DNA from: Cytophagaceae bacterium
GTDB lineage: Bacteria; Bacteroidota; Bacteroidia; Cytophagales; Spirosomataceae
Direction of reading: 5' to 3'
Assembly: GCA_947450865.1 (NCBI GenBank)
Contig: CANFWR010000001.1
Coordinates: 1-48,573 of the forward strand
Length of the DNA: 48,573 nt
In this document: positions 5,563 to 46,580 of the stretch, piece by piece
Position numbering within the stretch: position 1 is the stretch's first letter
Layout of the letters: each line of letters opens with the position of its first letter
Notes under the pieces: generated by a model
Databases searched by the model: none
Seen by the model: only the letters and a program-made list of their open reading frames with translations
Told to the model about the DNA's origin: nothing
Position numbers and translations under genes: made by a program

Positions 5563-5646
5563 GTTCGAGGGGTTTACGATGTAAAATTAAAAATCTTTCT
5601 GAAAAAAAGGCGGGTTTGGCCCTTTTTATTTAGCTTCGTGTAAAAT

Positions 5647-27862: not shown

Positions 27863-27944
27863 AATTATTTATTTGAAGAATAAATATAAGGATGCGCGGT
27901 TGATTTTCTATCCGGATTAAAACAGATTTTACAATTTGATATTG

Positions 27945-29244: not shown

Positions 29245-29260
29245 AAAAAATCTTGAAAGT

Positions 29261-29478
29261 GTCGCTGCTACGCAGCTTAGTCGACTTCGTCTTAGTCATC
29301 GCTTCGCGATTTAGTCAAAGAGTCATCGTTACACGATTTAGTCGCCTGCGGCCTAGTCGACTTCGTCTTAGTCAATGGGTCGAGCGACTAAACGACATCG
29401 CTGCGAAGCAGTGCCGACTAAATCGCGAAGCGATGACTAAACGACGTAGTCGTGACTAAGTCACGAAGGGACGACTTT
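29261..29478. repeat. GACTAA-linker / mini-hairpin array 2 (two inverted halves)
   Basis: Six hairpins with TTAGTC linkers (29264-29373), then four with GACTAA linkers (29386-29478). Confidence 0.92.
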
Positions 29479-31573: not shown

Positions 31574-31576
31574 ATT

Positions 31577-31631
31577 TAACTTTAGCATAATATTTGCTTA
31601 ATCAGGAGTTTAAATTGATGGCCTATTTTTG
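31577..31631 (+). promoter_or_regulatory. Pho-box-like repeats plus -7 box
   Basis: TAACT 31577, TAATA 31588, TAATC 31599 (11-bp period), 20 nt gap, TATTTTTG 31624. Confidence 0.55.
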
Positions 31632-31650
31632 GTAAACCAAATAGGTAATC

Positions 31651-32451
31651 ATGGGCCATCATTTTCAACCCACCTACAAAACAATCGTTATCTCAGACTT
31701 GCATTTAGGTAGCAAGGGAGCTAAAGCAGCCGAGGTAAACGAATTCTTACGCGCACATTCGTGCCACCAACTCATCTTAAACGGCGATATCATCGACGGC
31801 TGGCAACTGAAAAAAGGAGGCAGCTGGAAGAAGAAGCACACGGGATTTTTCCGTTGTGTGTTAAAGATGATGGATAAGTGGGATACGGAGGTGATTTATT
31901 TGCGCGGGAATCACGATGATTTCTTGGAGCAAGTGCTTCCGTTGAAAATTGGGAAGCAGTTTTCGATTCGCCAGGACTATACGTTGAAGAGTTTTGGCAA
32001 GAAATACTTCATCACACACGGCGATATTTTCGACAGTATTACGAGCCAAATGAAATGGCTAGCCTATTTAGGCGATATCGGCTACACGTTCTTGTTGTGG
32101 TTGAATAAATGGTATAATCAATACCGCACGTGGCAAGGAAAGCCATACTACTCTTTGTCGCAGGTGATTAAGCAGAAAGTGAAGGCGGCGGTGAATTTCA
32201 TCTCGGATTTTGAGGAAAAATTAGCAGAATTAGCGAAGGCCAAAGGCGCGGATGGAATCATCTGTGGCCATATTCACAAGGCTGAAATCAAAATGATCGA
32301 CGGAATCGCGTATATGAATTCTGGCGACTGGGTTGAATCATTGACAGCCTTAGTGGAAACACACAAAGGGGAATGGCAAATCATCGAATTCCCTCACTAC
32401 AATTTGAAAGCAGAGTTAAACGAAATTTTGGGCGAAGCAATCGCTGTTTAA
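31651..32451 (+). CDS. Metallophosphoesterase, PlcP-like phospholipase C (LpxH superfamily)
   Basis: ISDLHLG, GDIIDGW, GNHD, HGDIFD, WLAYLGD, CGHIH, NSGDWVES. Confidence 0.75.
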   Translation: MGHHFQPTYKTIVISDLHLGSKGAKAAEVNEFLRAHSCHQLILNGDIIDGWQLKKGGSWKKKHTGFFRCVLKMMDKWDTEVIYLRGNHDDFLEQVLPLKIGKQFSIRQDYTLKSFGKKYFITHGDIFDSITSQMKWLAYLGDIGYTFLLWLNKWYNQYRTWQGKPYYSLSQVIKQKVKAAVNFISDFEEKLAELAKAKGADGIICGHIHKAEIKMIDGIAYMNSGDWVESLTALVETHKGEWQIIEFPHYNLKAELNEILGEAIAV

Positions 32452-32452
32452 G

Positions 32453-33622
32453 ATGGGCAAATTCATATTTACCGTACAAGGAGAAGGTCGCGGACATTTA
32501 ACACAAGCGATCTCATTTACACAAATCGCACGCGAGGCGGGTCACGAAGTGGTGGGCTATGCCGTGGGATCTTTTCAGGGGCGTAAAATCCCATCCTTCT
32601 TTTTAGATTTCATTGGCGACACTCCCCTATTACAATACAATAGCCCTTCTATTATTTTTGGGAATGGGAAATCGGTCCAACTTTTCAAAACTGCGGCACA
32701 GGCTTTCACGAATTTCAAAACGTTTTGGAAGAGCGCCACTCAATTAGAAGCGTTCGTTGAAGAATTGCAACCGGACGGAATTGTTAATTTCTACGAGTCC
32801 ATCACAGGGTTATATAAATTAAAATCAGGGTCAAAAATCCCGACGATGTCCGTAGGTCATCAATACTTATTATTAAACAAGAACTTCGAAAGTATTCCGG
32901 AGAAGAAAATCGACCGTATTCTATTAAATATGAATACGATGATTACGTCTATCGGTTCGAAGAAGTTATTAGGCTTATCTTTCCGTCCTATTGATAATGA
33001 CGCGAAGATCGAAGTGGTTCCACCACTTTTGCGCCAGCAGGTAAAAAACATTGTACCGAAAGCGGGCGAGCGTTGGTTAGCCTATTTAACGCACTTCCGT
33101 CTTTCAGAAGATATTATGAACTGGTCGAATGCGAATCCGGAGGTAAAATTGGATTGCTTTTGGGATAATCCAGCACGCAGGGAGACCTATCACTATTCCG
33201 ATTCATTGACATTCCATCCGATTGATGCGGAGAATTATTTGGCGAAAATGACGGAATGCGCTGGCTTAATCTCCACAGCAGGTTTTGAGTCAGTAGCTGA
33301 GGCGATGTACCTAGGAAAGCCGGCGATGATGGTTCCAGTGCCTAACCACATCGAACAGATGATTAACGCATTCGATGGCGAGATGTCAGGAGCAGGAATC
33401 GGTGCTTCGTCTTTTGACCTTAGTATCTTCAAAAAATATTTGCCTTCTCACGTGTCGGTTCAAGATCAATACCAACAGTGGGTCGCTAAGTCCCAAAGCT
33501 TAATGGCTGGACACTTATCAGAATTAATTGCACAGCCAGTTTACGTGGCTAACTTCAGAGAAAACCAAGGAACGGGTTTATCTGGCATGTTAGGCAGACG
33601 GAGATTCCGCTGGTCGCGCTAG
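32453..33622 (+). CDS. GT-B glycosyltransferase (GT28/MJ1255-like)
   Basis: QGEGRGH, STAGFESVAEAMYLGKP, HIEQMINA; 1 nt after the upstream gene. Confidence 0.85.
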   Translation: MGKFIFTVQGEGRGHLTQAISFTQIAREAGHEVVGYAVGSFQGRKIPSFFLDFIGDTPLLQYNSPSIIFGNGKSVQLFKTAAQAFTNFKTFWKSATQLEAFVEELQPDGIVNFYESITGLYKLKSGSKIPTMSVGHQYLLLNKNFESIPEKKIDRILLNMNTMITSIGSKKLLGLSFRPIDNDAKIEVVPPLLRQQVKNIVPKAGERWLAYLTHFRLSEDIMNWSNANPEVKLDCFWDNPARRETYHYSDSLTFHPIDAENYLAKMTECAGLISTAGFESVAEAMYLGKPAMMVPVPNHIEQMINAFDGEMSGAGIGASSFDLSIFKKYLPSHVSVQDQYQQWVAKSQSLMAGHLSELIAQPVYVANFRENQGTGLSGMLGRRRFRWSR

Positions 33623-33630
33623 CAACACAT

Positions 33631-33663
33631 AAAAAAAGGCGAATCTTGCGATTCGCCTTTTTT
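33631..33663. terminator. Bidirectional intrinsic terminator
   Basis: A7-GGCGAATC-ttgc-GATTCGCC-T6. Confidence 0.9.
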
Positions 33664-33679
33664 GTTATGACTAAGTAGA

Positions 33680-36600
33680 TTAGAACGTGTAACGCGCTCC
33701 TACTTGCATCTGCCATCTAGATCCCATTTGATCTACCGTGTATGGCGAAGATGGAACGGCAAACTTGTACGTTGGATCAGCTGCTGTACCTGAGTTAATA
33801 CGCGTCAAGCCTAAGCTGGCAGTTGAATTAAAGGTGTTAGGCGCGAAGTAAATTCTACCCCAGTTGCTATTAATTAAGTTCGTCGCGTTCATGATATCTA
33901 AAGAGAACTGTAAATCGTGGCCATTTGACATTTTGATCATATGGTTTAATTTCAAGTCTAAAGTCGCATTCCAAGGGGTACGACCACCGTTACGCTCTGT
34001 GAAATCTCCTTTACGTGTGCTCAAATACTCATCTGCATTGATGTAAGCCATAAACGCTTTCGCTTGATCTGCTGCTGTACCTAATTTGGCATCCGCAACC
34101 ATGTACTTAGCCGCTTCTGTTTCATCTTTAAATAAATAGGCTAATCCAGCCGCTTGTGGTGTATTTGCAATCGTTGAGTTCACAAAACCCCATGTGAAAG
34201 GAGCACCTGATTGTGCACTGAATACCCCTGATAGAGTGGTTGCGCTACCATTTTTGTATACTTTCGTGTAGCCAAATGAACCAATGATTCTATGGCGAAT
34301 ATCGAAGTTCGAGTAAGCTATCTTGGGGTTATTAGGCGTTAAGGATTGGTTTAACTGCCAGTTAGATTCCATTGAGTTACGGATACCGTTTGTTAAGTCA
34401 AAGCTTTCACCAAATGTATAAGCCGTCATAAACGTAAATCCATTCGTGAATGTCTTCGATACTTGAGCCGTTAAGCTGTAACGATGCCCTTCAGAGGTAT
34501 TCGATAATTCGTACGCATTCGCGAAGTTCGTGTTCAATTTTTGACCTGTTGCACCGCCTGATAAATAGATTGGCATTTGCTTCAACACGTCATAAGTGTA
34601 ATACTTAACAGAGTCTTTTAAGTTCACTTGTTGGAATTTCAAGTCATTGATTGTCTTTGTATAGATACCTTCCAAAGTGAATTTGTAACCATCCACCGTG
34701 TGATCCACCGCTACGCTAGAGCGTAATACTTGTGGCATTTTGAAATTATTTGCCATCGCATCTACTTGCGTTAAGCTTTTTTGGCCATTGTTAAAGGCAA
34801 AATCCTTCGCGCCCACTTTCAACACATCTCCTACGTTCTTACCTGCCACATTGCTCACGTCAAAAGAACCAAAACCAACACCGTCATTGTAGAATGCATA
34901 GCCCAACCAAGCGAAAGGAATACGACCCGTGAAGATACCTGATCCCCCACGAATGATAGTAGAACGGTCACCATTCACATCGTAGTTAAATCCTAAACGT
35001 GGAGAAACCAATACTTGACCAAAAATCGAATTAGAAATCTGATTCAATGGTGTTGCCGCATTATACGTAGTACCTGCATTGGGATCTATTTTTGTTGCTG
35101 CAGTTTGAGGACTCAAGGTAGGATTATCCGTGCTAGCCACGTCAAAACGAATACCAGGAGACAATTTCAATTTATCCGTTACTTGAATCTCATCTTGAGC
35201 GTAGATACTGTAAAGTCCTACATTAAAAGTGGCATAAGGATTATTCAAGATTGTTTCGCGGTCGTTATTTGTGAAGCTATAAGATCCACGCACACGGTTC
35301 ACATTACCAGCTAAGAAATCCGCTACACTTTTGTAAGCTACACGACCATTCCAAGAGTTCACAAAACCATAGTTGATATTGTACAACTCATTGTGGGTAC
35401 CGATTAAGAAGGTATGATTTCCTTTGAACCACGTAAAGTTATCTGTGATTTCAAAGGTCTTTTGCTTCATATTGAAGATGGTTGCTTCACGCTCATTTCC
35501 TAAGAAAATCGTTCCGCCATTCGCCGCAATTTCCACTTGTGGGAAAGCTGGGTTTGCACTAGATGGCTCACGTGTATCGCGGATATCTGAATAACCAAAT
35601 ACAAGGCTATTTGAAGCACTGCCAAAGTGGCTCTTTAATTCTGCTACCGTTGAATTCGTACGGTTCACTTGCTTAAAATCCATCGATCCAAAACGGAAGT
35701 TAGACGCATCACGCTCTAAGTTTGTTGCTTCTGAAGCAACGTACGAGTTACGAACTGACAATTGGTGTTTATCTGAGATATTCCAGTCAAAACGGTTAAA
35801 GAATTTATTACTAGATGAGTTGATCGAATAAGCACCAAATGCACCTGGATCAAATCCGTAGTTCGTCTTTAAGAAAGAGGATATAGAGTTTGCTGTCGCA
35901 GCATCGATAATGGTACCTTGATCACCTGCTCCGTAGAACAAGGGCTCGTTACGACGTGTGATCTCTTCGTTTGTAAACCAGAACAATTTGTTCTTGATGA
36001 TAGGTAAACCTAAACGGAAACCTGTTTGAATATCAGAATAGTCAGATGGGATTTTCGAACCATCCCCTGCGTTGTTTGGTCCTGTAATTAATGAGTTACG
36101 ACCGTAAGCATAGGCAGATCCTTTTACTTGGTTTGTACCAGTACGCGTAACTGCGTTAATTGAACCACCGGTAAAGTTACCAATCTTCACATCATAAGGA
36201 GCTACATACACTTGTACATCTTGAATCGCATCTAATGAGATAGGGTTCGTGCGTGTTGAAGAACCAGGCATGCCTGATGTACCGCTTTGGCCCCCTAATG
36301 ATGGGCTAAATCCAATCGCATCGTTATTAATCGTACCATCCACTGTTACGTTGTTGTAACGGAAGTTTGTTCCAGCAAAAGAGTTGGATGAACTACCCTG
36401 AGGAGTCAATTTAGTCATATCGGTTAAACTACGCGAGATCGTAGGAACCGTTTTCATCGCTGCTTCATTTAAGGAAGTAACGGAACCTGTTCTTGTTCCG
36501 CCTTTATCCGCTTTCACCACCACTTCCGTTAACGTTGTCGTTTCTTCCGAAATAACAATATTCACAGATGGGTTAGAGCCTAACGTCAAGTTTAAGTTCT

Positions 36601-36886
36601 CTGCTTTGAAAGGTTTGAATCCTACAAAAGATACCGAAAGTGTGTAAGGCCCGCCTGGATTCATATTTGCCAAAACGAAGTTACCGTCGATCTGGGTAGA
36701 AACACCATAACGCGTTCCTGTGGGCGTATGCACTAAAATTACACTGGCTCCTGGAATTTCTTCTCCTTTCGCATCTTTCACTTTTCCCGCCAAAGAAGCG
36801 GTCGTCACTTGCGCATTTGCATTAAAAGCAAATAAAGTAAAAACAAAAATTAGTAGGCCGAATGCCTTTTGACTAAAATTGTACAT
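33680..36886 (-). CDS. TonB-dependent receptor, Oar-like, with carboxypeptidase-regulatory-like N-domain
   Basis: AQVTTASLAGKV, PGGPY, PISLDAI, GNFTGGSINAVTRTGTN, SPRLGFNYD, C-terminal QVGARYTF; ATG at 36886. Confidence 0.9.
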   Translation of the reverse strand: MYNFSQKAFGLLIFVFTLFAFNANAQVTTASLAGKVKDAKGEEIPGASVILVHTPTGTRYGVSTQIDGNFVLANMNPGGPYTLSVSFVGFKPFKAENLNLTLGSNPSVNIVISEETTTLTEVVVKADKGGTRTGSVTSLNEAAMKTVPTISRSLTDMTKLTPQGSSSNSFAGTNFRYNNVTVDGTINNDAIGFSPSLGGQSGTSGMPGSSTRTNPISLDAIQDVQVYVAPYDVKIGNFTGGSINAVTRTGTNQVKGSAYAYGRNSLITGPNNAGDGSKIPSDYSDIQTGFRLGLPIIKNKLFWFTNEEITRRNEPLFYGAGDQGTIIDAATANSISSFLKTNYGFDPGAFGAYSINSSSNKFFNRFDWNISDKHQLSVRNSYVASEATNLERDASNFRFGSMDFKQVNRTNSTVAELKSHFGSASNSLVFGYSDIRDTREPSSANPAFPQVEIAANGGTIFLGNEREATIFNMKQKTFEITDNFTWFKGNHTFLIGTHNELYNINYGFVNSWNGRVAYKSVADFLAGNVNRVRGSYSFTNNDRETILNNPYATFNVGLYSIYAQDEIQVTDKLKLSPGIRFDVASTDNPTLSPQTAATKIDPNAGTTYNAATPLNQISNSIFGQVLVSPRLGFNYDVNGDRSTIIRGGSGIFTGRIPFAWLGYAFYNDGVGFGSFDVSNVAGKNVGDVLKVGAKDFAFNNGQKSLTQVDAMANNFKMPQVLRSSVAVDHTVDGYKFTLEGIYTKTINDLKFQQVNLKDSVKYYTYDVLKQMPIYLSGGATGQKLNTNFANAYELSNTSEGHRYSLTAQVSKTFTNGFTFMTAYTFGESFDLTNGIRNSMESNWQLNQSLTPNNPKIAYSNFDIRHRIIGSFGYTKVYKNGSATTLSGVFSAQSGAPFTWGFVNSTIANTPQAAGLAYLFKDETEAAKYMVADAKLGTAADQAKAFMAYINADEYLSTRKGDFTERNGGRTPWNATLDLKLNHMIKMSNGHDLQFSLDIMNATNLINSNWGRIYFAPNTFNSTASLGLTRINSGTAADPTYKFAVPSSPYTVDQMGSRWQMQVGARYTF

Positions 36887-36912
36887 TTTGAATATATTGG
36901 TTGTTTGTAGCG

Positions 36913-36990
36913 CAAAGGTAATACGCACACTAACCTTCCAATGTTACCAAATTGTTAAGAGAATGTGAAGTAATTGTTAGGGGCTTGTTA
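36913..36990 (-). promoter_or_regulatory. Five Pho-box-like repeats plus -7 box
   Basis: Plus strand TGTTA at 36942, 36953, TGTGA 36964, TGTTA 36975, 36986; minus-strand TACCTTTG at 36920-36913. Confidence 0.75.
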
Positions 36991-37098
36991 ACAATTCCAA
37001 TATTAAATTTTTAACGGTGTCTAAAAACTTAACACAGATAAATTTTTTATACTGAATACTTTCTCTATGTTTGACCTCTACAAACAGAATTTAATAGC

Positions 37099-37503
37099 AT
37101 GAGTGAGGATAACAAAAAACTAACCGATCAAATCGTTCAAGGAATTTTACCTAAGTTAAAAGGCCTATCAGAAAAGAACGCAAAGAAAGTGTTGCACGAA
37201 ACACACAAATCTATTTCTTCCATTGTGAAGAAGTACAGCAAGTTAATTGCAGACCAAGAAAAAGATAAAGCGAAAGCAAAAGAGAAAGCAGCGAAAGAGG
37301 CAAAAAAGAAGTCAGAAAAAGCAGCAAAGAAAAAAGCGAAAGAAGCGAAGAAACTAGCTAAGGCAAAATTACTTGCTACACTGATTGCTAAAGAAAAGCC
37401 GGCAACTCCGGTGGCGGTTGCTGCAAAATCGAAGGCTGCTGCAAAACCAAAAGCTCCAGTTAAACCGAAGGCTAAACCAAGAGCTCCTAGAGCAAAAAAA
37501 TAA
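37099..37503 (+). CDS. Small Lys/Ala-rich basic protein (histone H1-like composition)
   Basis: KAKAKEKAAKEAKKK ... KPKAPVKPKAKPRAPRAKK; own -7 box TATGTTTG at 37066 and downstream terminator. Confidence 0.65.
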   Translation: MSEDNKKLTDQIVQGILPKLKGLSEKNAKKVLHETHKSISSIVKKYSKLIADQEKDKAKAKEKAAKEAKKKSEKAAKKKAKEAKKLAKAKLLATLIAKEKPATPVAVAAKSKAAAKPKAPVKPKAKPRAPRAKK

Positions 37504-37515
37504 AAGGTATTCAAT

Positions 37516-37551
37516 AAAAAAAGGTGGGATTTATGTCCCACCTTTTTTTTT
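37516..37551. terminator. Bidirectional intrinsic terminator
   Basis: A7-GGTGGGA-tttatg-TCCCACC-T9. Confidence 0.9.
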
Positions 37552-37565
37552 CTTTCTATTCAATC

Positions 37566-39023
37566 TTAACCCGTAATCCAGCGGAAGAATAAAAACAATA
37601 AGGCCGAAAGTACAATCGTTACAGGCAGGGTTAAAATCCAAGCCATGACAATATTCTTTACCGTTCCTCCTTGTAAATTTTTGATGCCGCGCTGCGCTAC
37701 CATCGTTCCAGCAATACCCGAGCTCAGCACGTGTGTTGTACTTACTGGCCATTTATAAGCGGTTGCTAAACCGATTGTTAACGAAGCAATCAATTCTGCC
37801 GAAGCACCTTGCGCATAAGTCAGATGATCTTTTCCAATTTTTTCACCGATCGTAACGACAATACGCTTCCACCCAATCATCGTACCTAGTCCTAAAGAAA
37901 GTGCTACCATCCACATGACCCAATTAGGGGCGAAATCAGTTACGCCAGCCATTCCAGTGCTAGATGAAGCACCAAAAGTAAAGAACGGTGCCTTCGTTCC
38001 AGCGGTTGCTTTTTTCCAAGCAGACTTATCATTTTCTGAAAGGGCTACTGATTCACTTTCAATTAACTTCTTGGAGAATTTATTAATTGTCAAAGCGGCT
38101 TTGCGAATCGCAAATTTTTGATCCGTCGAAAGTGTTGAAGGATTTAAATCCTGTGCTGTGATCACGGCTAATTCAGTAGATGACTGCTTTAGTTGATTTA
38201 AACCATCCCGCTCTTTTTCCGATAATGGGATAGTATCAATCTTTGCTGAAATAGTTTGAACTGTTACTAAACTAGACTTTATCATTTGCATATCTAAAGT
38301 CGTATTAATCGCAAAATAACCTGGCAAGAAAGCGATCAAAATAACCATCACTAAGCCGATTCCTTTTTGGCCATCATTACGACCATGGAAGAAAGAAACT
38401 AGGGTACAAGTCGCAATTAAAATCGAGCGAATCCACATCGGTGGCGGCGATTTTTTCTTAGGCTCTTTGAAAATATCTTTGTTGGTTATCGTCTTTTTAA
38501 GGATGTACATTAAGATGATTGCTAATGCAAAACCAAATAAAGGAGAAAGCAAAAGTGCTTGACCAATTTCAATGACTTTGTCCCAGTTTAACGAAGCCAT
38601 TCCTTTGTTAGATGCCTCTGGAAGTAATGCGTGGCCTACCCCAATACCAATGATAGAACCAATCAAGGTGTGGGAGCTAGACGCTGGAATACCGAAATAC
38701 CAAGTACCTAAATTCCATAAAATAGCCGAAATTAATAAAGAAAGGGCCATCGCCATCGAATGGTAGACATTTGTATCGACGAGCAACTCCGTGGGGAGTA
38801 GACCTATGATACTCATGGTTACCCCTACGCCACCGGTTAATAGCCCTAAAAAGTTCATAAATCCAGACCAAACCACCGCTTGAGTTGGACGCAAAGAATG
38901 CGTATAAATAACGGTTGCCACTGCATTTGCCGTATCGTGAAAACCATTCACAAATTCAAAGGCACAAGCGGCTAATAGGCAAAAACAAAGTAGGAAAAAC
39001 AATGTAGGATCTAATCCGAACAT
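37566..39023 (-). CDS. pitA: Inorganic phosphate transporter, PiT family
   Basis: NGFHDTANAVAT, PASSSH, HGRNDGQK, PVSTTH, AWILTLP. Confidence 0.93.
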   Translation of the reverse strand: MFGLDPTLFFLLCFCLLAACAFEFVNGFHDTANAVATVIYTHSLRPTQAVVWSGFMNFLGLLTGGVGVTMSIIGLLPTELLVDTNVYHSMAMALSLLISAILWNLGTWYFGIPASSSHTLIGSIIGIGVGHALLPEASNKGMASLNWDKVIEIGQALLLSPLFGFALAIILMYILKKTITNKDIFKEPKKKSPPPMWIRSILIATCTLVSFFHGRNDGQKGIGLVMVILIAFLPGYFAINTTLDMQMIKSSLVTVQTISAKIDTIPLSEKERDGLNQLKQSSTELAVITAQDLNPSTLSTDQKFAIRKAALTINKFSKKLIESESVALSENDKSAWKKATAGTKAPFFTFGASSSTGMAGVTDFAPNWVMWMVALSLGLGTMIGWKRIVVTIGEKIGKDHLTYAQGASAELIASLTIGLATAYKWPVSTTHVLSSGIAGTMVAQRGIKNLQGGTVKNIVMAWILTLPVTIVLSALLFLFFRWITG

Positions 39024-39055
39024 AAAACTATTTTTAAAGATAAAAATTCAATTTA

Positions 39056-39099
39056 CTAAGGTAAGGGGCATTTCCAAAACCAATGTTAAGGAATTGTTA
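39056..39099 (-). promoter_or_regulatory. Pho-box-like repeats plus -7 box
   Basis: TGTTA at 39084 and 39095; minus-strand TACCTTAG at 39063-39056; 20 nt gap. Confidence 0.65.
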
Positions 39100-39105
39100 A
39101 ATCCC

Positions 39106-40167
39106 TTATTTTACTTCACTTTTAAACGAGACTCCGATGGCATTTGCCGCCTTGTGAATCAACTCTTTTTGATACACTTGCTCCTTCGATTTTACTTCCC
39201 CTAAAGCTGGAACATTCGCCCCTAACATGGCATACCAAATCTGGTAACAATCCTTAACACTATCCCCGTGGGATGTCCATTGGGTCTTTACAGCATCGCC
39301 GCGTCCATGATCAGTCGTGATCAATAAGGTCGTTTTTCCTTTGTATTCTGGATCTGTATTTACAAAATCCCAAATCTCCCCTACCCACGCATCAAACTGG
39401 TGTACCGCATCTAGGTAATGATTGTAAGCGCCTTCATGCGCAAATTCATCCGTTTCCCCGTAGGAAATATACAAGGCTTTCGGCTTATTTTTTTTCAAAT
39501 AATGCATTGCTTTGAAATGCGTAAATGCGTCCAATGATTCCGCCATACCAAAAGGTTTAAATGACTCCTTCAACATCTTCGCTACCATTTTCATCTCCGG
39601 ATCTTTCTCTAATTCCGGATAGGAATCGAATGCATTAACTACCGGGAAACCGGCTCTTTTCTCATTCAAAATACGATCAAACGCATCCCAAGCACCGAAC
39701 GCAGCCACCTTCCCTTTATATGCTGGCAAGGAGTTTAAGTATTCAAAAAAGTTTGTATTCGGATTAGGCTTGTACTCATTGGAATTCACTGCTGTGTCTA
39801 CTTGGCCTGTTAAAATTTCGCTATATCCTGGATAAGAAAACCAATACGGATTCGCATTGTCTACTTGACTTCCCTCTTTTCTATTTCCGTGTAACTGACC
39901 TGCAGTAGCTAATTTACCCCAGAAGAAAGGCATTAATTTAGCACGTCTTTCTACCAAAGTAGGCGCATAATATTGCTGTATTAAACGAGCAGAATCTCCC
40001 TGGTGAAAACCCTTCATCTTAACAATGGACGTATCTATTCCATTGAAGACTTCTTGCCAGCGATAGCCGTCTGTGGTGATGACAATGACACGCGCGTCTG
40101 GGTTGTTTTGTTGTGCAAAAATGCGAGGTGTGAAAAGGAGAAATAACAGTACTAATTGTTTCATCAT
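39106..40167 (-). CDS. Exported alkaline-phosphatase-superfamily metalloenzyme
   Basis: Signal peptide; ITTDGYRWQE, FSYPGYSEILTG, GETDEFAH, TTDHGRG. Confidence 0.85.
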   Translation of the reverse strand: MMKQLVLLFLLFTPRIFAQQNNPDARVIVITTDGYRWQEVFNGIDTSIVKMKGFHQGDSARLIQQYYAPTLVERRAKLMPFFWGKLATAGQLHGNRKEGSQVDNANPYWFSYPGYSEILTGQVDTAVNSNEYKPNPNTNFFEYLNSLPAYKGKVAAFGAWDAFDRILNEKRAGFPVVNAFDSYPELEKDPEMKMVAKMLKESFKPFGMAESLDAFTHFKAMHYLKKNKPKALYISYGETDEFAHEGAYNHYLDAVHQFDAWVGEIWDFVNTDPEYKGKTTLLITTDHGRGDAVKTQWTSHGDSVKDCYQIWYAMLGANVPALGEVKSKEQVYQKELIHKAANAIGVSFKSEVK

Positions 40168-40180
40168 TATGGCTTATTGA

Positions 40181-40235
40181 CAAAGCTAAGTTATGGAAAT
40201 AATCAGAATATAATACGCTTGTTAAGTTTAGATTA
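40181..40235 (-). promoter_or_regulatory. Pho-box-like repeats plus -7 box
   Basis: Minus-strand TAGCTTTG at 40188-40181; in-phase TATAA 40209 (weak), TGTTA 40220, GATTA 40231. Confidence 0.5.
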
Positions 40236-40637
40236 ATTGTTCAAAGATCCCTGTTTGGCCCAAGCTTCAATCAAGGCTATTTCGCATTTTAGCAGGGAGG
40301 CTCCTTTAGGCATATACGGGGGATTTCCACTGGGTGGAAAATAAACCGATTGATATAATTCGCCCGATTTCGAGGACTCTGAAATTTGCGTGTAATTCTC
40401 TATGACAATGCCACCGTAATGATTCTTCGCATCATGGCAGGACAGGCAATTATTCTTAATGATGGGATAGATATCTCGTGAAAAAGAGACCGTGGATAAA
40501 GGTGACGTAGAACAAGTGGAGGGGGCTATGTTGCCCTCCTTATCTTGTAAACAACCCGATAGAAAAAAAACAAGAAATGCCAGAAGGAAACCTCCTAGCA
40601 TTTTCTGTATTACACCAATATATTGTCTTTGAACCAC
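40233..40637 (-). CDS. Putative monoheme c-type cytochrome lipoprotein
   Basis: Lipobox LSG-C; 'VSFSRDIYPIIKNNCLSCH' (CxxCH); distal 'YMPK'; 'IEAWAKQG'. Confidence 0.75.
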   Translation of the reverse strand: MVQRQYIGVIQKMLGGFLLAFLVFFLSGCLQDKEGNIAPSTCSTSPLSTVSFSRDIYPIIKNNCLSCHDAKNHYGGIVIENYTQISESSKSGELYQSVYFPPSGNPPYMPKGASLLKCEIALIEAWAKQGSLNN

Positions 40638-41179
40638 TATAGTTTGTGGGTGGGCACCCAGCGGTTTATATTTTCATTGTATTGTAATGTTGAATCTGGC
40701 CATTGGATATAATCTTTCATGACCATGTACTCATCTAGCTTTCCGTTATTCTTTAATTCTCTAAAAAGGAATGCGCCGCGTTCTAAGACTTCGGCTTCTT
40801 TTAAGTGCGGTGTATTTACCACTTCTTTAAAATCGTAAGGTTTTAAGCTGCCCGATTTTAGTTTAAATGTTCCCACGACACCGCGTTGGAAAACTTGTAG
40901 GTTTGCAACGGGTCTAGTAAGGAAATAGTACCACGTACTATCTTCTTTCATCTCTAGTTTCACTAGTTTATAAAAGGGTAGACGCATCCAGTAATAATTA
41001 GTGTATTTGGCTTGAAAACGTGTTGTATCGTTTGCAAAGGGCGGGTTCTCCGCCACGAATGTCATTATATTGGTAGTTAAGGTATCTTGTTGCGCTTCAT
41101 TAAAGTAGTAAGCGACTTCGTCTTTTTTATGGCAAGATGCCAAAGACATCAAGGCAAAAAGGGCAATAATGTATTTCAT
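40637..41179 (-). CDS. Hypothetical lipoprotein
   Basis: MKYIIALFALMSLAS-C lipobox; no family recognised. Confidence 0.65.
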   Translation of the reverse strand: MKYIIALFALMSLASCHKKDEVAYYFNEAQQDTLTTNIMTFVAENPPFANDTTRFQAKYTNYYWMRLPFYKLVKLEMKEDSTWYYFLTRPVANLQVFQRGVVGTFKLKSGSLKPYDFKEVVNTPHLKEAEVLERGAFLFRELKNNGKLDEYMVMKDYIQWPDSTLQYNENINRWVPTHKL

Positions 41180-41198
41180 GGTGTTTGGTGTAAAATTT

Positions 41199-41231
41199 AA
41201 AAAAAGGGAGCTGACCTGAGCCAGCTCCCTT
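41199..41231 (-). terminator. Intrinsic terminator after the large lipoprotein
   Basis: A7-GGGAGCTG-acctgagc-CAGCTCCC-TT. Confidence 0.85.
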
Positions 41232-41239
41232 GGATACCT

Positions 41240-43030
41240 TTACTTAATATAAACGACTGCTTGAGGAGCAAATTCTGCCCAACCCGCTGTCCAGTCTGTA
41301 GATTTAAATGCACCTACGTAATCTGTTGCTTCGAAGAAAGCAGGAAGACCTGATTTCAAGTTAGCACCGATTAATGACTCAGAAGTACCTGCCGTTAATG
41401 TGAACGTAGGACGACCTGCAGACCATAAAGTAGAAGAAAGACCTAAGTTAGCTTGTGTCGCTACAAGTTTATTACCTGTTAAAGCTTTGAACCAATCTTC
41501 AGGAACAGCTGTACCGATTGTGAAAGCTGTTAAACCTGTAGAAAGACCTGTATTTAAAGATGTCATATTCTCAAAACCTGGAACTGGAACACCCATTGGC
41601 TTAACTGCAACAGACCAGTTTAAACCCCAACCGTTCGTTCCCCAGCCTTCAACACCAGCTAATACTACGTTTCCTAAATCGATATCACCAGCAGCAGCGT
41701 TCGCTTTTGCACTACCTTTTTGAGAGTCAATATAAACTCCATAAGGATATCCTGTGATAACCGTGTTATAGATTTTTTGCTTGTTGTTACGACGTAATTG
41801 AGCACCATGTTGGAATAATGGGTCAATGGCAACAGAAGATGATCCTTTTGCTCCAATGATTGACATGTTCGCAAAAATCGCAGAAGTGAATGGTGTGTTT
41901 GCTGAACCGTTCGCATCGTTATCACACTCAAAACCATTTGATCCTGATTGATCCGCAATAGCAGCACCACGGATACCTATACCGAATTGTACATATCCTG
42001 AGAATCCATTATCTGTATCAAAGTCATCATCTAATCCTTTATAAGCGATTAAGTGTTTTGCGTTTACTGTTCCGCCAAACCACTCAAATGAATCATCTAA
42101 ACCATAAGAAGCTTGAACATAATCAATTGTTGTACCTGAGCCTACTGAACCCATTGTTAATGAGTTAACCTCTTGGTTCGGGTTGATAGGGATACCCGCG
42201 TATTCTAAACGAACATATTTCAATGTCCCTGAGTTATCAGCTGCATCAGTACCACCATGGAACGCACCGTAACCACCTTCTAATTCACGAGAAGCTTGTG
42301 CATCAGGTAAGTTATTAGGAGCCTTACCACAAATAACTAATCCACCCCAGTCACCTGGCTCACGTGTACCTGGATCTCTCTCAGATGTGAAAACGATAGG
42401 AGCAGCAGCTGTTCCGATTGCGTTGATTTTAGAACCACGTTGTACGATTAATGCACCTTTTGTAGCACGTTCTCCGATAATAACAGTTCCCGCCTCAATA
42501 GTCAAATTACCTACTTTCGTAGTTGTTCCGTAAGTAGCTTCTTCACCTACACGCACAAAACCTGACAATTTGTAGATTTTATTCGCAGTCCAAGTTACGT
42601 TACCTTCGATTACACCCGTAACAGTAACAATTTGCTTAGGAGGTGTAGCAGTCACTGTAACCACGACAGGAACTAAAGCAGAAATTTGGTTTTTGTTATC
42701 CGTTGCTTGAATAGTAAAGTTAACCTTAGAACCAGCTGCTAACGACTCTACTACATAAGTAGAAGTATACGTATACGCTTTTTCACCAGCTAAAACTTTC
42801 GTTTCGAATGCTGCACCATTTTTCAAAACAGTGATAGATTTCAAACCTGCAGGAGCAGAGATAGAGGCGCTAACCGTAACGGAAGCACCCGCAATACCAG
42901 CCAATTCACCGCTTGACGTTACCGTGGGAAGCGGGAATACTTCATCTTCTTTTTGGCATGAAGAGAATGCAAGAGAAACGACTGTTAGAACAGCCATTAA
43001 CTTGAACAAGTTGTTTGTAAAAAGTTTCAT
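41240..43030 (-). CDS. Surface lipoprotein with Ig-like and predicted beta-helix domains, partner of the TonB-dependent receptor
   Basis: Lipobox FSS-C; LTIEAGT, PIVFTS, GDWGGL, DNSGTLKYVRLEYAG, DDSFEWFGG, DDDFDTD. Confidence 0.75.
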   Translation of the reverse strand: MKLFTNNLFKLMAVLTVVSLAFSSCQKEDEVFPLPTVTSSGELAGIAGASVTVSASISAPAGLKSITVLKNGAAFETKVLAGEKAYTYTSTYVVESLAAGSKVNFTIQATDNKNQISALVPVVVTVTATPPKQIVTVTGVIEGNVTWTANKIYKLSGFVRVGEEATYGTTTKVGNLTIEAGTVIIGERATKGALIVQRGSKINAIGTAAAPIVFTSERDPGTREPGDWGGLVICGKAPNNLPDAQASRELEGGYGAFHGGTDAADNSGTLKYVRLEYAGIPINPNQEVNSLTMGSVGSGTTIDYVQASYGLDDSFEWFGGTVNAKHLIAYKGLDDDFDTDNGFSGYVQFGIGIRGAAIADQSGSNGFECDNDANGSANTPFTSAIFANMSIIGAKGSSSVAIDPLFQHGAQLRRNNKQKIYNTVITGYPYGVYIDSQKGSAKANAAAGDIDLGNVVLAGVEGWGTNGWGLNWSVAVKPMGVPVPGFENMTSLNTGLSTGLTAFTIGTAVPEDWFKALTGNKLVATQANLGLSSTLWSAGRPTFTLTAGTSESLIGANLKSGLPAFFEATDYVGAFKSTDWTAGWAEFAPQAVVYIK

Positions 43031-43067
43031 TTGATTTTAAATTGATTGTTTAGTTTAATTGTAAGAT

Positions 43068-45905
43068 TTATTTATATCCGAAAGGCGTAAAAATGAGCCC
43101 CAAAGAGTATACGCGACCAGGAGAATACGACTGAATTACTTGATCCTTAGAAGTATCAAAGCTTCCATCTTGGTTACCATCTTGTAAGACGATATTGTTA
43201 TTATTTAAGATATCCGAAACACCACCTTTAATCTGGATATTCTTGTAGATTCTCTTCGAGAAAGTGAAATCCACTACGTTACGTGGCATCTCGTACCAAT
43301 CTGGATAGGCATAACCGTAGTTATTACCCACCGCATAAATACGTTTTCCGATTACGTTAAAGGACAGATTTAACTGCAATCCTTTCTGAGTGTCATTGTA
43401 ATTATAAGTCGCGTTCACGATGTAAGGACTTTGGCCTTGTAAAGGGCGATTATCCGATTGATTTGCTCCTGTTGTAGTTCCCAAAGTAACCTTACTAGCA
43501 ATGAAAGCAGCATTGAATACCACACTTGATTTTGCCCAGAAACCCGTAGGTTGAATGAAATTCAAGTTCTTACGAATCTCCGCTTCGATACCAGCAGAAT
43601 AAGCGCTGGCAGCATTTTCAAAGCTCAAGTTTGGATTTGAACCTGAAGAGAATACCACCTCAATAGGGTTCGTAAATTGCTTGTAGAATAATGCCAAACT
43701 CACTACCTCGGATGGCGTAGGATAGGACTCAAAACGGAAATCGTAATTTTGAACTGTTGCATTCTTCAATTTAGAGTTACCCGTAATGTTGCGGTTGTTC
43801 ACGAAATCATAGAAAGAGAATGGAGCTACTTCGCGGAATTCAGGACGATTAACTGTTTGACCAAAAGCTAAACGAAGCAATGATTTCTCCGTGAAGTTGT
43901 AGGTCATATTAACAGAAGGTAAGATATTCAATACGGTGTTATCGTATTTTAATGGCTTACCGATTAAGTCATACGAATCTAGTTTTTGGCTATTACTCTC
44001 CGCACGTACACCAGCGACCACATTTACTTTTGATCCTAAAGCTAAACCTGCTTGAACATAGCCTGCGTATAATAAATTCGTTGCTGTATAGGAGTCATTC
44101 GGGTTCGTTTGCTCATCAATTTTAACCCCAGTAGTTGGGTTGATATTAGATGGGTCAAAAATTTGCTCTACAGGCAATCCTCCTAAATTAAATAAGCTGG
44201 AATTCGCACGAACAAAGGCTAAGTTACGCGCATCAAATTGACGCTTCTTCGACTCTAAATATACACCAGTTTTGAACTCTAATTCTTTACCTTTAGCGCC
44301 GTCTTTCCCTGAAGCTAAGATGAATTTGTGCGCTAAATTAAGACCTCCCGTAACCGCTTTTTCATTTAAAATAATGTTTGTACGGCCTAGGTTAAAGGTT
44401 TGAGCAGCTCCTTGTGGAACATATAAAATGCGGCTATTACCATCGACTAAATAACGGAAACGCTTGTAGTCTGGTTGCTCACGGAAAGATGAATTATAAC
44501 CCGCTACCCAGTCAAGTTTCGTATTGCCATCATTAAAATCATGCTTCCCGGCTAATTGACCCGTATAAATACCGCGGTATACTTGGTCAAAAGAACGAAT
44601 GTTCCAATTAGCTCCATTGTCATCTCCATTACGATCCACAAATTGTGAATTGCTTAACTGGTTAAATAAGTTCTTGATTTCGATACTATGATTGTCTGAG
44701 AACTTGAATGCCCAGTTATGCATCACACCTACACGAATCGCGGTTGAATATTGTTGATCTGTAAAACTGAAAACGAAATCCGGCTTACCTGTAGTCAAAA
44801 TAGACGAGTAGCCATAATCGTTTCGAAGCATGTTAAACTTTGTGTAAGTGCTGGAATAGTTCACGGCTGTTACATTTCCTACTTTAACACTACCTAGGTT
44901 AAATTTTAAACCTCCCGAAAGAGAGAATCGCATATCAGGTAATGCAGTAGATTGAACTGGAACCCAGTTATTTCTAAGCGATTGACCTATTTGAGCTAAT
45001 TGAGCTGGCCCAGCGTTATTGATTTCTAATTTTGTTGCTGGGAACGATTTAGGAAGATCAAAGTAACCTGTGTTAAAACCTGTCCAATAGTTTGCTCCGT
45101 GCATAGGAGAATAGAACGTCGAGTTTGTCGTTCCATCTCTGTAAGAAGAACTAGCATCGATGGTTAGGAAGTTTTGCTCTGGAATCGTTTTGGTAAAAAT
45201 CTTTACCACACCACCTGCGAATTCGCCAGGCAATTCAGCAGCAGGAGATTTGAACACCAAAATACGGTCAATTTGACCAGCTGGAATGATATCGAATGAG
45301 AATGAACGCATATCCGTCTCCATCGATGGAGCGAAAGTATTGTTCAATTGTACTGTGTTATAACGTTCGTTTAGACCACGGATATTAATGAAGCGATCAC
45401 CGAAGATGGTTACACCTGGAACACGCTTCACAACTTCTGCCGCTGTACGGTCTAAAGTCTTCGTGATTTGTGCAGCGGAGATACCACTTACGACTAACTG
45501 AGAGGCTTTGATCTCTGAGATAACCGAAACTTCCGTGTTAGTTAAACGCTGAGCAACTACTTTTACTTCTGCTAAAGTAGAACTTGCTTCCTGGATGTTT
45601 AAGTTCAAATCAGTTACTTGACCTGCTTCTACTTTAACTCCTTCGTAAATTTTAGAATCGTAACCCACATAAGAGATCTTTAATGAATAAGATCCTGTTG
45701 GAAGTTTTGCGAAAGAGAAGAAACCGTTAATATCTGTTGCAGCGCCTTTATTAATGCCTTGCACTAAGATGGTTGCTCCGATAATGTCTTCTTTTGTTTT
45801 TGCGTCTTTAATCGTTCCGCGAAGGGTTCCTTCTTGCGCAAATGCCGCTGCAGAGAGCGTAAAGAATAGAATGATTAAATTGGTGTACTTGTAAACTGAT
45901 TTCAT
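43068..45905 (-). CDS. TonB-dependent receptor with carboxypeptidase-regulatory-like N-domain
   Basis: Signal peptide; plug 'KRVPGVT..IRGLNERYN', 'LPGEFAGG'; 'NRPEFRE', 'RPLQGQSPY'; ATG at 45905. Confidence 0.92.
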   Translation of the reverse strand: MKSVYKYTNLIILFFTLSAAAFAQEGTLRGTIKDAKTKEDIIGATILVQGINKGAATDINGFFSFAKLPTGSYSLKISYVGYDSKIYEGVKVEAGQVTDLNLNIQEASSTLAEVKVVAQRLTNTEVSVISEIKASQLVVSGISAAQITKTLDRTAAEVVKRVPGVTIFGDRFINIRGLNERYNTVQLNNTFAPSMETDMRSFSFDIIPAGQIDRILVFKSPAAELPGEFAGGVVKIFTKTIPEQNFLTIDASSSYRDGTTNSTFYSPMHGANYWTGFNTGYFDLPKSFPATKLEINNAGPAQLAQIGQSLRNNWVPVQSTALPDMRFSLSGGLKFNLGSVKVGNVTAVNYSSTYTKFNMLRNDYGYSSILTTGKPDFVFSFTDQQYSTAIRVGVMHNWAFKFSDNHSIEIKNLFNQLSNSQFVDRNGDDNGANWNIRSFDQVYRGIYTGQLAGKHDFNDGNTKLDWVAGYNSSFREQPDYKRFRYLVDGNSRILYVPQGAAQTFNLGRTNIILNEKAVTGGLNLAHKFILASGKDGAKGKELEFKTGVYLESKKRQFDARNLAFVRANSSLFNLGGLPVEQIFDPSNINPTTGVKIDEQTNPNDSYTATNLLYAGYVQAGLALGSKVNVVAGVRAESNSQKLDSYDLIGKPLKYDNTVLNILPSVNMTYNFTEKSLLRLAFGQTVNRPEFREVAPFSFYDFVNNRNITGNSKLKNATVQNYDFRFESYPTPSEVVSLALFYKQFTNPIEVVFSSGSNPNLSFENAASAYSAGIEAEIRKNLNFIQPTGFWAKSSVVFNAAFIASKVTLGTTTGANQSDNRPLQGQSPYIVNATYNYNDTQKGLQLNLSFNVIGKRIYAVGNNYGYAYPDWYEMPRNVVDFTFSKRIYKNIQIKGGVSDILNNNNIVLQDGNQDGSFDTSKDQVIQSYSPGRVYSLGLIFTPFGYK

Positions 45906-45934
45906 AAAAGAGAATACTGGTGATTTTGATGTCA

Positions 45935-46000
45935 CAAAAGTATTCCCGCTACACTTCAGCTCGATTAAGCCAATGTTAGGCTTCTGTTATGTAAATGTTA
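45935..46000 (-). promoter_or_regulatory. Four Pho-box-like repeats plus -7 box
   Basis: Minus-strand TACTTTTG at 45942-45935; GATTA 45963, TGTTA 45974, 45985, 45996. Confidence 0.75.
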
Positions 46001-46136
46001 AAAGAAACCCCATTCGATTAACAATTCGGTAACATGGGTATTTTTTGTAGAAAATTTCACTTTTCTATACTGTTTTATTGCATAATTTCAAGTTTTTGCA
46101 TTTTTTATAGAAGAACTTTCTTAGAAAAGTGAAAAT

Positions 46137-46180
46137 TAACATGGATTTAATTTGCGGGTAATGTGAAAGCACTAGTTTTG
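46137..46180 (+). promoter_or_regulatory. Pho-box-like repeats plus -7 box
   Basis: TAACA 46137, TAATT 46148, TAATG 46159; TAGTTTTG at 46173. Confidence 0.45.
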
Positions 46181-46229: not shown

Positions 46230-46580
46230 ATGAAAAAGTACTCAAACAAAAACACAATTGCTGCCTTATTATTTGCAGCCAGCCTGTTTGTCGTTTCTGC
46301 CGCTAATGGAGCAGAATTATCACTTCCCGTGAACATTGAATCTGTAGGTAAATTGAAATATATGGTGTCTGTCAAAGCAGGAGCCACGGTCATCATCTAC
46401 GATGCAGAAAATAACGAGATTCACAAGGAAGGAATCGCAACGCAAAAATTGTTCAATTTAGCGGGATTATCTGATGGAAACTACCGCATGGTAGTCTTAG
46501 ATGACCACAAAAACGTGTTGACTTCTAAGTCGTTTACGATCAAAACGGAAGTGAAGCGCGATATCGTTGCTATGAACTAA
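46230..46580 (+). CDS. Small secreted beta-sandwich protein of unknown function
   Basis: Signal peptide; 'IYDAENNEIH' and 'FNLAGLSDGNYRMVV' resemble small Ig-like folds. Confidence 0.65.
   Translation: MKKYSNKNTIAALLFAASLFVVSAANGAELSLPVNIESVGKLKYMVSVKAGATVIIYDAENNEIHKEGIATQKLFNLAGLSDGNYRMVVLDDHKNVLTSKSFTIKTEVKRDIVAMN

Follow-up and report, generated by a model that had tools for sequence, protein, structure and literature searches.

Background

The PhoP box of Bacillus subtilis is made up of TT(A/T/C)ACA repeats with an 11-bp period, up to four units in number, between about -22 and -60. The arrays that we describe here have the same hexamer and a similar span, with a different type of sigma promoter and a different gene set.

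In Escherichia coli the Pho box consists of two 11-nt direct repeats (PMC4415409) and, according to passages in PMC1906773, lies 10 bp upstream of the -10 element; the same passages give the cyanobacterial Pho box (SphR) as three copies of CTTAACCT with 3-bp linkers. Among the Bacteroidota, PhoB of Bacteroides fragilis (BF1576) binds the pstC promoter and is needed for Pi induction of pstC; the bound DNA was a 512-bp fragment, and the passages found in that paper name no motif (PMC3547664). For Flavobacterium johnsoniae, Table 1 of PMC8115612 lists a phoBR locus in which the phoB-divergent TonB-dependent transporter (TBDT) and the FII lipoprotein are up 8-10 ('FC' column) on Pi depletion, with PlcP and a pf04101 glycosyltransferase rising too; the paper also has a pf13620 TBDT and a pf01676 phosphatase as Pi-induced, and reports induction of the phoBR-type locus on Pi and not on N or Fe limitation, and plant-associated Bacteroidetes without PstSABC. 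The term 'Pho box' is absent from the main text of that paper.

We report that arrays of 11-bp repeats precede genes in an island within a 48,573-nt stretch of DNA (the window) from an Aquirufa-like bacterium. On sequence evidence these are likely the Pho boxes of a PhoB-like regulator encoded elsewhere in the genome, which would switch the island genes on at low phosphate (rough probability 0.87). They share with the E. coli PhoB system the 11-bp tandem repeats, a fixed distance to the promoter, a regulator of the OmpR/PhoB family and, putatively, autoregulation; the half-site is TTAACA instead of CTGTCAT, a distance of 8 or 19 bp, and not 10, separates the end of the 8-bp unit from the TA of the -7 box, and, unlike in E. 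coli, PstC and PhoU were not found in this genome. As far as PMC1906773 describes the cyanobacterial box, that too is an 8-bp unit with a 3-bp linker upstream of phosphorus genes, and the units are nearly identical (CTTAACAT here and CTTAACCT there, position 7 being A and C, respectively). Unlike in cyanobacteria, two units often suffice here, the arrays are tied to the Bacteroidota TAnnTTTG element and the targets include TBDTs and Pit.

Repeat arrays and predicted promoters

The features of the island are listed below; ranks are given first for an independent matrix (1248 upstream regions) and then for a composite scan (973 regions), both described in the next section.

31575..31607, +, three-unit array TAACT/TAATA/TAATC upstream of plcP and the glycosyltransferase gene (ranks 19 and 5)
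31624..31631, +, predicted -7 box TATTTTTG of the plcP promoter, 25 nt from the last unit
31651..32451, +, PlcP-like metallophosphoesterase, 266 aa (PF00149/PF12850)
32453..33622, +, glycosyltransferase, likely co-transcribed with plcP (PF13528/PF04101)
33680..36886, -, Oar-like TBDT, ATG start
36913..36920, -, predicted -7 box TACCTTTG of the Oar-like TBDT promoter, 26 nt from the last unit
36938..36992, -, five-unit array of the Oar-like TBDT, the strongest site in the genome (ranks 1 and 1)
37566..39023, -, Pit/PHO4-family transporter of inorganic phosphate (PF01384; score under the cut-off of the PitA model)
39056..39063, -, predicted -7 box TACCTTAG of the pit promoter, 25 nt from the last unit
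39080..39101, -, two-unit dyad ahead of pit, conserved in 26-27 of the 29 family orthologues (independent matrix, rank 3)
39106..40167, -, AlkP-superfamily secreted metalloenzyme, a weak regulon member (PF01676)
40181..40188, -, predicted -7 box TAGCTTTG of the AlkP-gene promoter
40205..40237, -, weak three-unit array TAATC/TAACA/TTATA of the AlkP gene (ranks 88 and 8)
41240..43030, -, 596-aa lipoprotein, FII-type by synteny, encoded downstream of the second TBDT
43068..45905, -, second TBDT (TBDT2)
45935..45942, -, predicted -7 box TACTTTTG of the second TBDT promoter, 25 nt from the last unit
45959..46002, -, four-unit array of the second TBDT, with a dyad conserved in 24-26 of the 29 family homologues (ranks 6 and 2)
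46017..46038, +, additional strong dyad, conserved within the genus, without a -7 box in register
46135..46167, +, weak three-unit array of the small secreted protein (ranks 544 and 13)
46173..46180, +, predicted -7 box TAGTTTTG of the small-protein promoter
46230..46580, +, 116-aa secreted protein

The name PlcP is putative, from the family match and the plcP-glycosyltransferase layout described in PMC4796936. For the Oar-like TBDT a longer GTG start at 36928 is unlikely because it is upstream of the predicted -7 box, and the 596-aa lipoprotein matched no Pfam family.

An earlier, sequence-only reading of this DNA had noted TAACA-like pentamers every 11 bp, several of them degenerate, and an extra pair at 46019/46030. 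Direct checking of the sequence found the pentamers at all 22 positions, 13 as exact TAACA and 9 in degenerate form (TAACT, TAATA, TAATC three times, TCACA, TTATA, TAATT and TAATG), and the extra pair is present as the strong + strand dyad 46017-46038, which is conserved in 4/4 aligned same-genus relatives and, on its own strand, lacks an in-register -7 box. The arrays are thus composed of at least two direct repeats with an 11-bp period, and the unit consensus across them is (C/G)(T/G)TAA(C/T)A(T/A)T. Counting only TAA(C/T)A, a pattern picked post hoc on data already seen and used without a matrix, the island's eight intergenic stretches (1,343 nt) hold six pairs at 11 bp, none at 7-10 or 12-14 and one at 15, and dinucleotide shuffles of the same DNA gave a mean of 0.05 pairs at 11 bp (maximum 2 in 2,000 shuffles). 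The repeat pattern is real and beyond chance.

With 66% A+T in the intergenic DNA and 9/22 pentamers degenerate, the periodicity could simply follow from AT-rich, bent promoter DNA, or be an upstream element intrinsic to sigmaA promoters, and no dedicated regulator would then be involved. Against this, the remaining 164,053 intergenic nt show no excess at 11 bp (8 pairs vs 2-11 at other spacings), intergenic dyads of at least 15 bits number only nine genome-wide, six of them in the island and one at phoB, and a TAA(C/T)A pair at 11 bp occurs in 0/29 control fba upstream regions. This explanation, to which we give hardly any credence, is largely refuted already.

Start-to-start distances from the pentamers to TAnnTT(T/A)G are 25/36/47 for plcP, 26/37/48/59/70 for the Oar-like TBDT, 25/36 for pit, 25/36/47/58 for the second TBDT, 36/47 plus the degenerate TTATA at 25 for the AlkP gene, and 14/25/36 for the small protein. 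The previously noted 20-21 nt between repeat and box is correct as the gap between the end of the pentamer and the start of the box. For 352 strict -7 boxes in the genome, TTTG has its peak 22-24 nt ahead of the box and overlaps the unit at 25, in agreement with the proposal that one repeat lies in the -33 slot; TAnnTTTG was taken as -12 to -5 (PMC9723704). Where a strict TAnnTTTG follows within 60 nt, 35/40 dyads sit at 14+11k nt from it, and a strict -7 box is missing downstream of 28/70 orthologue dyads. With the -7 boxes as predicted, the repeats keep a fixed register to the promoter core, over the -35/-33 element.

Independent matrix, conservation and genome-wide scan

Unseeded Gibbs sampling of 50 Flavobacteriales phoB-TBDT spacers recovered the same 11-bp repeat. 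Among 1248 upstream regions this independent matrix placed the Oar-like TBDT, phoB, pit, TBDT2 and plcP at ranks 1, 2, 3, 6 and 19. Within the family, TAA(C/T)A pairs at 11 bp were found upstream of pit in 26/29, TBDT2 in 24/29, the Oar-like TBDT in 19/29 and plcP in 7/29 cases, counts from relatives that are not independent samples. The genome-wide scan with a spacing-constrained matrix, as proposed earlier, used a composite model that joins an 11-bp dyad to a -7 box in register. Four island promoters and phoB took the first five places among 973 regions, and nine matches reached at least 8 bits vs 0-1 in out-of-register controls. Such a model picks candidate phosphorus-starvation targets from a Bacteroidota genome with few false matches, so that orphan TonB receptors and lipoproteins of abundant freshwater and soil bacteria become assignable to phosphorus scavenging.

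The box is also present at canonical Pho genes other than plcP, i.e. at phoB (rank 2/1248) and pstS. An 11-bp dyad of at least 13 bits occurs in 12/20 picked pstS regions, with at most one at other spacings; in an unpicked set the site is directly upstream in 5/30 top pstS matches, and in 0/19 from family f19.

The candidate regulator and its probable signal

The sequence-only reading had placed the regulator outside the window, and our candidate is on contig C126 (267-968), with an 11-bp box in its own promoter. The genome has four OmpR-family regulators and the PhoB models are best only for C126 (TIGR02154 with 207 and NF053854 with 203 bits, neither reaching the cut-off). A PhoR-like kinase is encoded at C52:13289-14320, and no other proteins in the genome match the Flavobacteriales phoBR-type regulator and kinase as well as C126 and C52 do; because the NCBIfam scores are below cut-off, the assignment of this PhoB/PhoR pair rests on synteny. 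In 80 Flavobacteriales loci with C126 relatives a C52-like kinase is present in 72, TBDT2 homologues in 51 (nearly all divergent from phoB) and lipoprotein homologues, next to phoB, in 45, and C52 relatives adjoin phoB in 10/29 family loci. A dyad of at least 10 bits is upstream of the phoB-like gene in 63/80 loci and, on either strand, in 18/29 family loci. A PDB search returned generic OmpR-family relatives only.

Matched by family and synteny, the C126-relative loci have the TBDT and lipoprotein arranged as in the phoBR locus of F. johnsoniae described in the parts of PMC8115612 cited above, whereas in the present genome phoB and phoR are unlinked to the island and to each other. By the same matching most targets have Pi-induced F. 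johnsoniae counterparts, which makes the content of the regulon less novel than the sequence-only reading had it when it assigned a role to uncharacterised genes.

Neither PhoU nor PstC was found in this 91%-complete genome, which therefore seems to lack the Pst-PhoU sensing route of E. coli. A PstS-like gene on contig C163 sits in an exbBD-tonB run and is not counted here as part of a Pst system; the one OprP candidate, a single sub-threshold match, turned out to be a BBP2 porin. With that route apparently missing, C126 might bind the boxes while its kinase responds to something other than, or besides, phosphate. The targets are phosphorus-economy genes, however, and the sections of PMC8115612 cited above describe induction of the corresponding locus in F. 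johnsoniae on Pi and not on N or Fe limitation, although plant-associated Bacteroidetes lack PstSABC; we regard another signal as improbable.

We suggest the following for a Pho-box regulon. The C52 kinase would phosphorylate PhoB, and PhoB~P would occupy successive units head-to-tail at about -26, -37, -48 and -59; the unit at -37 to -33 would replace the TTTG -33 element and recruit sigmaA polymerase, in the way that PhoB of E. coli acts at -35, and phoB would activate itself. PlcP and the glycosyltransferase would cut phosphorus demand by converting phospholipid to glycolipid, the two TBDTs, the FII-type lipoprotein and Pit would import phosphorus, and the AlkP-family gene, a weak member, might hydrolyse organic phosphorus. 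This would be a familiar kind of switch in a lineage variant, and the surprise is moderate because the mechanism is of a textbook kind. Freshwater RNA runs, available as contigs only, had at most 14% of the words present and for that reason are uninformative on start sites and induction.

Probable RprY sites have nearly the same half-site with 10-bp spacing

The TAACA core is common to PhoB and RprY sites, and the half-sites are nearly identical, so the repeats might belong to the RprY-like C53 or another OmpR paralogue instead of PhoB. The DAP-seq motif published for 'PhoP' of Riemerella anatipestifer, also in the Bacteroidota and with 583 peaks in print, is TTTAACA (PMC9603813) and fits the half-site. 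The primer-encoded ends of that OmpR-family protein match C53 and not C126, i.e. the termini are RprY-type, and the moxR probe in the same paper has TTTAACA at 10-bp spacing. This is also the period at rprX genes: unseeded Gibbs sampling of 29 rprX upstream regions gave TTTAACA-N3-TTTAACA, an ArcA-like repeat, with pairs at 10 bp in 22/29 and at 11 bp in 0/29 loci. At 10 bp, pairs are found in 0/29 pit, 0/29 TBDT2 and 1/29 Oar-like regions, in contrast to the counts at 11 bp. With the RprY matrix the six window promoters come out only at ranks 149-1066 and phoB at 981, and it is the 11-bp box that is found at phoB and pstS. Regulation by C53 or another paralogue is thus very unlikely.

We therefore dropped the Riemerella TTTAACA as a known Pho box; it is likely the RprY box, which suggests that the published 'PhoPR' system is RprXY. 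The Pho-box reading is upheld by the de novo Flavobacteriales matrix, family conservation, the boxes at the phoB-like gene and pstS, and the exclusion of RprY by spacing. On a wider scale, and with only somewhat more confidence than doubt, we propose that Bacteroidota PhoB (11-bp repeats over the -33 slot) and RprY (10-bp) use near-identical TTAACA half-sites with a one-base difference in spacing, that the sole printed Bacteroidota 'PhoP' motif found is the RprY box, and that the true Pho box, so far undescribed, drives Pit, TonB receptors and lipid remodelling in streamlined freshwater Cytophagales without the Pst-PhoU sensor, so that PhoR would have to receive its Pi signal by another input. 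One base of spacing would tell the two sites apart, and it offers a handle on how paralogous regulators keep their targets separate.

Strong, weak and off-register sites

Six promoters had been placed in one regulon. Four of these are strong (plcP-glycosyltransferase, Oar-like TBDT, pit and TBDT2-lipoprotein), and that part stands; the AlkP-gene site (0/12 orthologue upstream regions) and the small-protein site (kept in the genus only) are weak. The true PhoB targets might then be the four promoters and phoB only, with the two weak arrays due to chance or decay, or with some sites acting in repression. In line with this the weak sites rank 88 and 544 with the independent matrix, the small-protein site scores in 4/21 weak homologues, and the stop codon of the preceding ORF falls within the AlkP pentamer at 40231-40235, the in-register unit being TTATA. 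Both sites are nevertheless in register with a -7 box and come 8th and 13th among the 973 regions of the composite scan, and 11th and 11th among 1248 on leave-one-out; the small-protein units (the two downstream ones) and box are kept, nearer to consensus, in 4/4 genus relatives; and PMC8115612, in the part cited, has a pf01676 enzyme Pi-induced in F. johnsoniae, matched to the AlkP gene by family. We consider restriction to the four promoters and phoB possible, though we lean against it; it narrows the Pho-box reading, and both can hold together.

No box in register was seen at two phosphatase-type genes in the window (25430-29198), at the PafA-like genes or at the PhoR-like gene. The strong dyads at aconitase (C14) and proline iminopeptidase (C38) are not followed by an in-register -7 box. 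The AOS-family acyltransferase (C104) was rejected as a target, being off register (at distances 16 and 27) and scoring in 2/29 orthologues, and mid-ranking matches such as uvrC, a trpE-like gene and HupE/UreJ, among others, have no evident phosphorus link. The 116-aa secreted protein belongs to no Pfam family; some of its Atlas look-alikes carry PF18962 (18% of members in the best named cluster).

Repeat arrays and promoter register

We report that the TAACA-like pentamers repeating every 11 bp in the island at 31.6-46.6 kb are real, and that the island is most likely a Pho regulon (probability roughly 0.87). The array would be a lineage form of an already known Pho-box type, its unit being almost identical to that of the cyanobacterial Pho box. 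The genes concerned, and a neighboring pair, are as follows.

Genes of the island and its flank (window positions)
31.6-46.6 kb: metallophosphoesterase, glycosyltransferase, Oar-like TonB-dependent transporter (TBDT), Pit transporter and PF01676 enzyme (AlkP gene)
31.6-46.6 kb, continued: second TBDT (TBDT2) accompanied by a lipoprotein of 596 aa; secreted protein of 116 aa
25430-29198, (-) strand: beta-propeller phosphoesterase (810 aa) and purple-acid-phosphatase-like gene, 2.4 kb from the island

All 22 pentamers listed in the sequence-only reading are present, 13 as exact TAACA. The intergenic DNA of the island (1,343 nt) holds six TAA[CT]A pairs at 11 bp (mean 0.05 and maximum 2 in 2,000 shuffles), and the remaining 164,053 intergenic nt hold eight vs 2-11 at other spacings. 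The proposed phasing to the -7 box was also borne out, with all six arrays in register with TAnnTT(T/A)G at 25-26 nt start-to-start, plus or minus multiples of 11. Since TTTG peaks 22-24 nt ahead of strict -7 boxes in this genome (n=352), the -33 slot falls under the unit at 25; if TAnnTTTG spans -12 to -5, as described elsewhere (PMC9723704), the units lie at about -26, -37, -48 and -59. Among 70 orthologue dyads of at least 12 bits, 28 were without a strict TAnnTTTG downstream and two had it beyond 60 nt, while 35 of the other 40 lie at 14+11k nt, two at +1 and three at +2.

A further dyad (46017-46038) is conserved in 4/4 genus relatives, and no partner -7 box was found for it; it might assist the TBDT2 promoter, which is divergent, or belong to an overlooked start. 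Strong 11-bp dyads were also detected upstream of the aconitase (C14:~29613-29634) and proline iminopeptidase (C38:~5598-5619) genes, both without a -7 box in register, and these possibly represent repressed targets or chance.

Conservation of the sites

Genes beyond the supplied ORF list were predicted with a simple gene caller (2,165 genes). An unseeded Gibbs sampler applied to 50 Flavobacteriales spacers between a phoB-like gene and a divergent TBDT recovered TAAC/TAAT repeats, and the resulting matrix ranked, among 1,248 upstream regions, the Oar-like TBDT 1, the phoB-like gene 2, pit 3, TBDT2 6 and plcP 19; the AlkP gene came 88th and the small protein 544th. With the window-unit matrix, leaving out each promoter in turn, the ranks were 1-13. 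Flavobacteriales phoB-TBDT spacers (L023-L091) carry two overlapping dyads with an 8-bp offset, one towards each gene, and the TBDT-facing array has up to five units.

Family footprints were scored with the window matrix (at least 10 bits, 11-bp spacing). Each search used its 30 best loci, drawn from between 36 and 120 sampled genomes, and kin are not independent. Sites were found for pit in 27/29, TBDT2 in 26/29, the Oar-like TBDT in 18/29 (only seven of the 29 matches are close orthologues, 4/7 of which pass) and plcP in 10/29; the control promoter fba gave 0/29. A matrix-free census gave pit 26, TBDT2 24, Oar-like 19, plcP 7, small protein 1, AlkP 0 and fba 0. Of the regulon of six promoters proposed earlier, membership is thus qualified for two, as the sites of the AlkP gene (0/12) and the small protein (4/21, eight of 29 loci being without usable alignment) are weak outside the genus.

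The genome scan with a spacing-constrained matrix, which the sequence-only reading had called for, combined the family matrix with a -7 box in register over 973 regions, and is partly circular because the window matrix was used to locate the family sites; its top five were the Oar-like TBDT, TBDT2, pit, phoB and plcP, while the AlkP gene came eighth and the small protein thirteenth. At 8 bits or more, nine regions were in register vs 0, 1 and 0 out of register. For pstS, the site is directly upstream in 5/30 of the top matches (0/19 in one family, f19, and 5/11 in the others). In 20 pstS regions hand-picked across families, f19 excluded, from 104 genomes with a match, an 11-bp dyad of at least 13 bits occurs up to 5 kb upstream in 12/20, and any other spacing in at most one.

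A PhoB-like regulator and a possible mechanism

The genome bearing the window as its contig C1 (2.38 Mb, completeness 91%) encodes four OmpR-family regulators: one RprY-like (C53), two resembling the CusR type, and one at C126:267-968, the only one with PhoB models as best matches, with scores below the cut-offs. The regulator had been noted as lying outside the window, and the C126 product is the PhoB-like candidate. Its closest named relatives are in Aquirufa avitistagni (77%) and Flectobacillus longus (68%), which makes the source an Aquirufa-like member of Cytophagales. Its own predicted promoter has a two-unit site with the -7 box at 15/26, and dyads are present on either strand upstream of 63/80 and 18/29 phoB-like genes.

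Relatives of C126 adjoin homologues of TBDT2 (51/80 loci), the lipoprotein (45/80) and plcP (13/80), and a kinase in 72/80, its best match here being C52:13289-14320. By synteny and Pfam, rather than sequence comparison, this layout matches the F. johnsoniae phoBR locus (Fjoh_0541-0546; PMC8115612), and a TBDT, an FII lipoprotein, a pf04101 glycosyltransferase, PlcP, a pf13620 TBDT and a pf01676 phosphatase are reported as induced by Pi depletion in that species (PMC8115612). PlcP and the glycosyltransferase form a known phospholipid-replacement module, and plcP is induced by P starvation in the flavobacterium Dokdonia (PMC4796936). Binding of PhoB to the pstC promoter, and its activation of that promoter, have been described in B. 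fragilis (PMC3547664).

At low Pi the C52 kinase would phosphorylate the C126 regulator, which would then line up head to tail along consecutive units, bound on one helix face; the unit at -37 might then stand in for TTTG and recruit sigmaA polymerase, and phoB would amplify its own expression. This activation geometry is modelled on that described for E. coli (PMC4415409, PMC1906773).

PstC and PhoU gave no match in this 91% complete genome, and its sole strong PstS-like gene lies in an exbBD-tonB run (C163). One phoB-like copy was found here; four family genomes have a second (G003:C2, G008:C11, G023:C89, G017:C245), in three of them on the same contig as the TBDT2 homologue, 1, 3 and 20 kb away.

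RprY and the spacing of the repeats

An unlikely alternative is that the arrays belong to the RprY-like regulator, following the published Bacteroidota motif TTTAACA, which is the DAP-seq motif of a Riemerella regulator named PhoP (PMC9603813). The published primers for the latter, translated by eye (PMC9603813 / PMC5399024), encode the C-terminus NVHGEGFRLLVKN and an internal GYQLGADD, matching C53 (NLHGEGFRLSVEGL, GFKVGADD) and not C126 (KTLKGVGYLF). The HGEGF-type end is absent from all 80 phoB-like loci, 59 of which have K/Q/G-T-x-K-G-x-G-Y and 21 neither type. The Riemerella kinase primer gives KGQGLG, which resembles the VKGFGLG of the RprX type but not the GGTGLG of the PhoR type. From these short primer-encoded stretches, rather than the full protein, the Riemerella "PhoPR" appears to be RprXY.

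Each of 29 family rprX genes is followed by an RprY-like gene, and an unseeded search upstream of them (L371-L399) gave a near-invariant TTTAACA-N3-TTTAACA on the opposite strand, the pairs being at 10 bp in 22/29 and at 11 bp in 0/29. This site is also present at C132:~830-970, on the contig holding the likely rprX 5' half, and the moxR probe of the Riemerella study has 10-bp spacing too (PMC9603813). The repeat is likely the operator of RprY, for which autoregulation and a role in oxidative stress have been described (PMC5706477). The window promoters rank 149-1066 under the RprY matrix, and the predicted DNA-reading helices of the two groups, PhoB-like and RprY-like, are not the same (ERTVDVHIRKLR vs ARSMDVYITKLR). 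The window arrays therefore fit PhoB, and the published TTTAACA motif likely belongs to RprY. The literature covered, mostly outside subscription journals, figures and supplements, yielded no published Bacteroidota Pho-box consensus or 10/11 contrast.

Other features of the island and its flank

The phosphatase-type pair at 25430-29198 has no box in register; the genes are perhaps constitutive, or cut off from their promoter by a repeat run. Short palindrome-rich, REP-like repeats of the GACTAA...TTAGTC type lie at ~29260-29465, between the purple-acid-phosphatase-like gene and fba. Two ORFs had no convincing family: a small lipoprotein-like one with a CxxCH motif immediately upstream of the AlkP gene (40233-40637, (-) strand), and a Lys-rich 134-aa one divergent from the Oar-like TBDT (37099-37503, (+) strand). 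In genus relatives (L322-L328; G062, G089, G108) a block sits between the glycosyltransferase and lipoprotein genes, encoding a SusC/SusD pair, HAD hydrolase, FAD oxidoreductase, PhoA-family phosphatase and DUF5690, and resembles a phosphonate/PUS cluster; pit in these three genomes is at a different location with its box intact.
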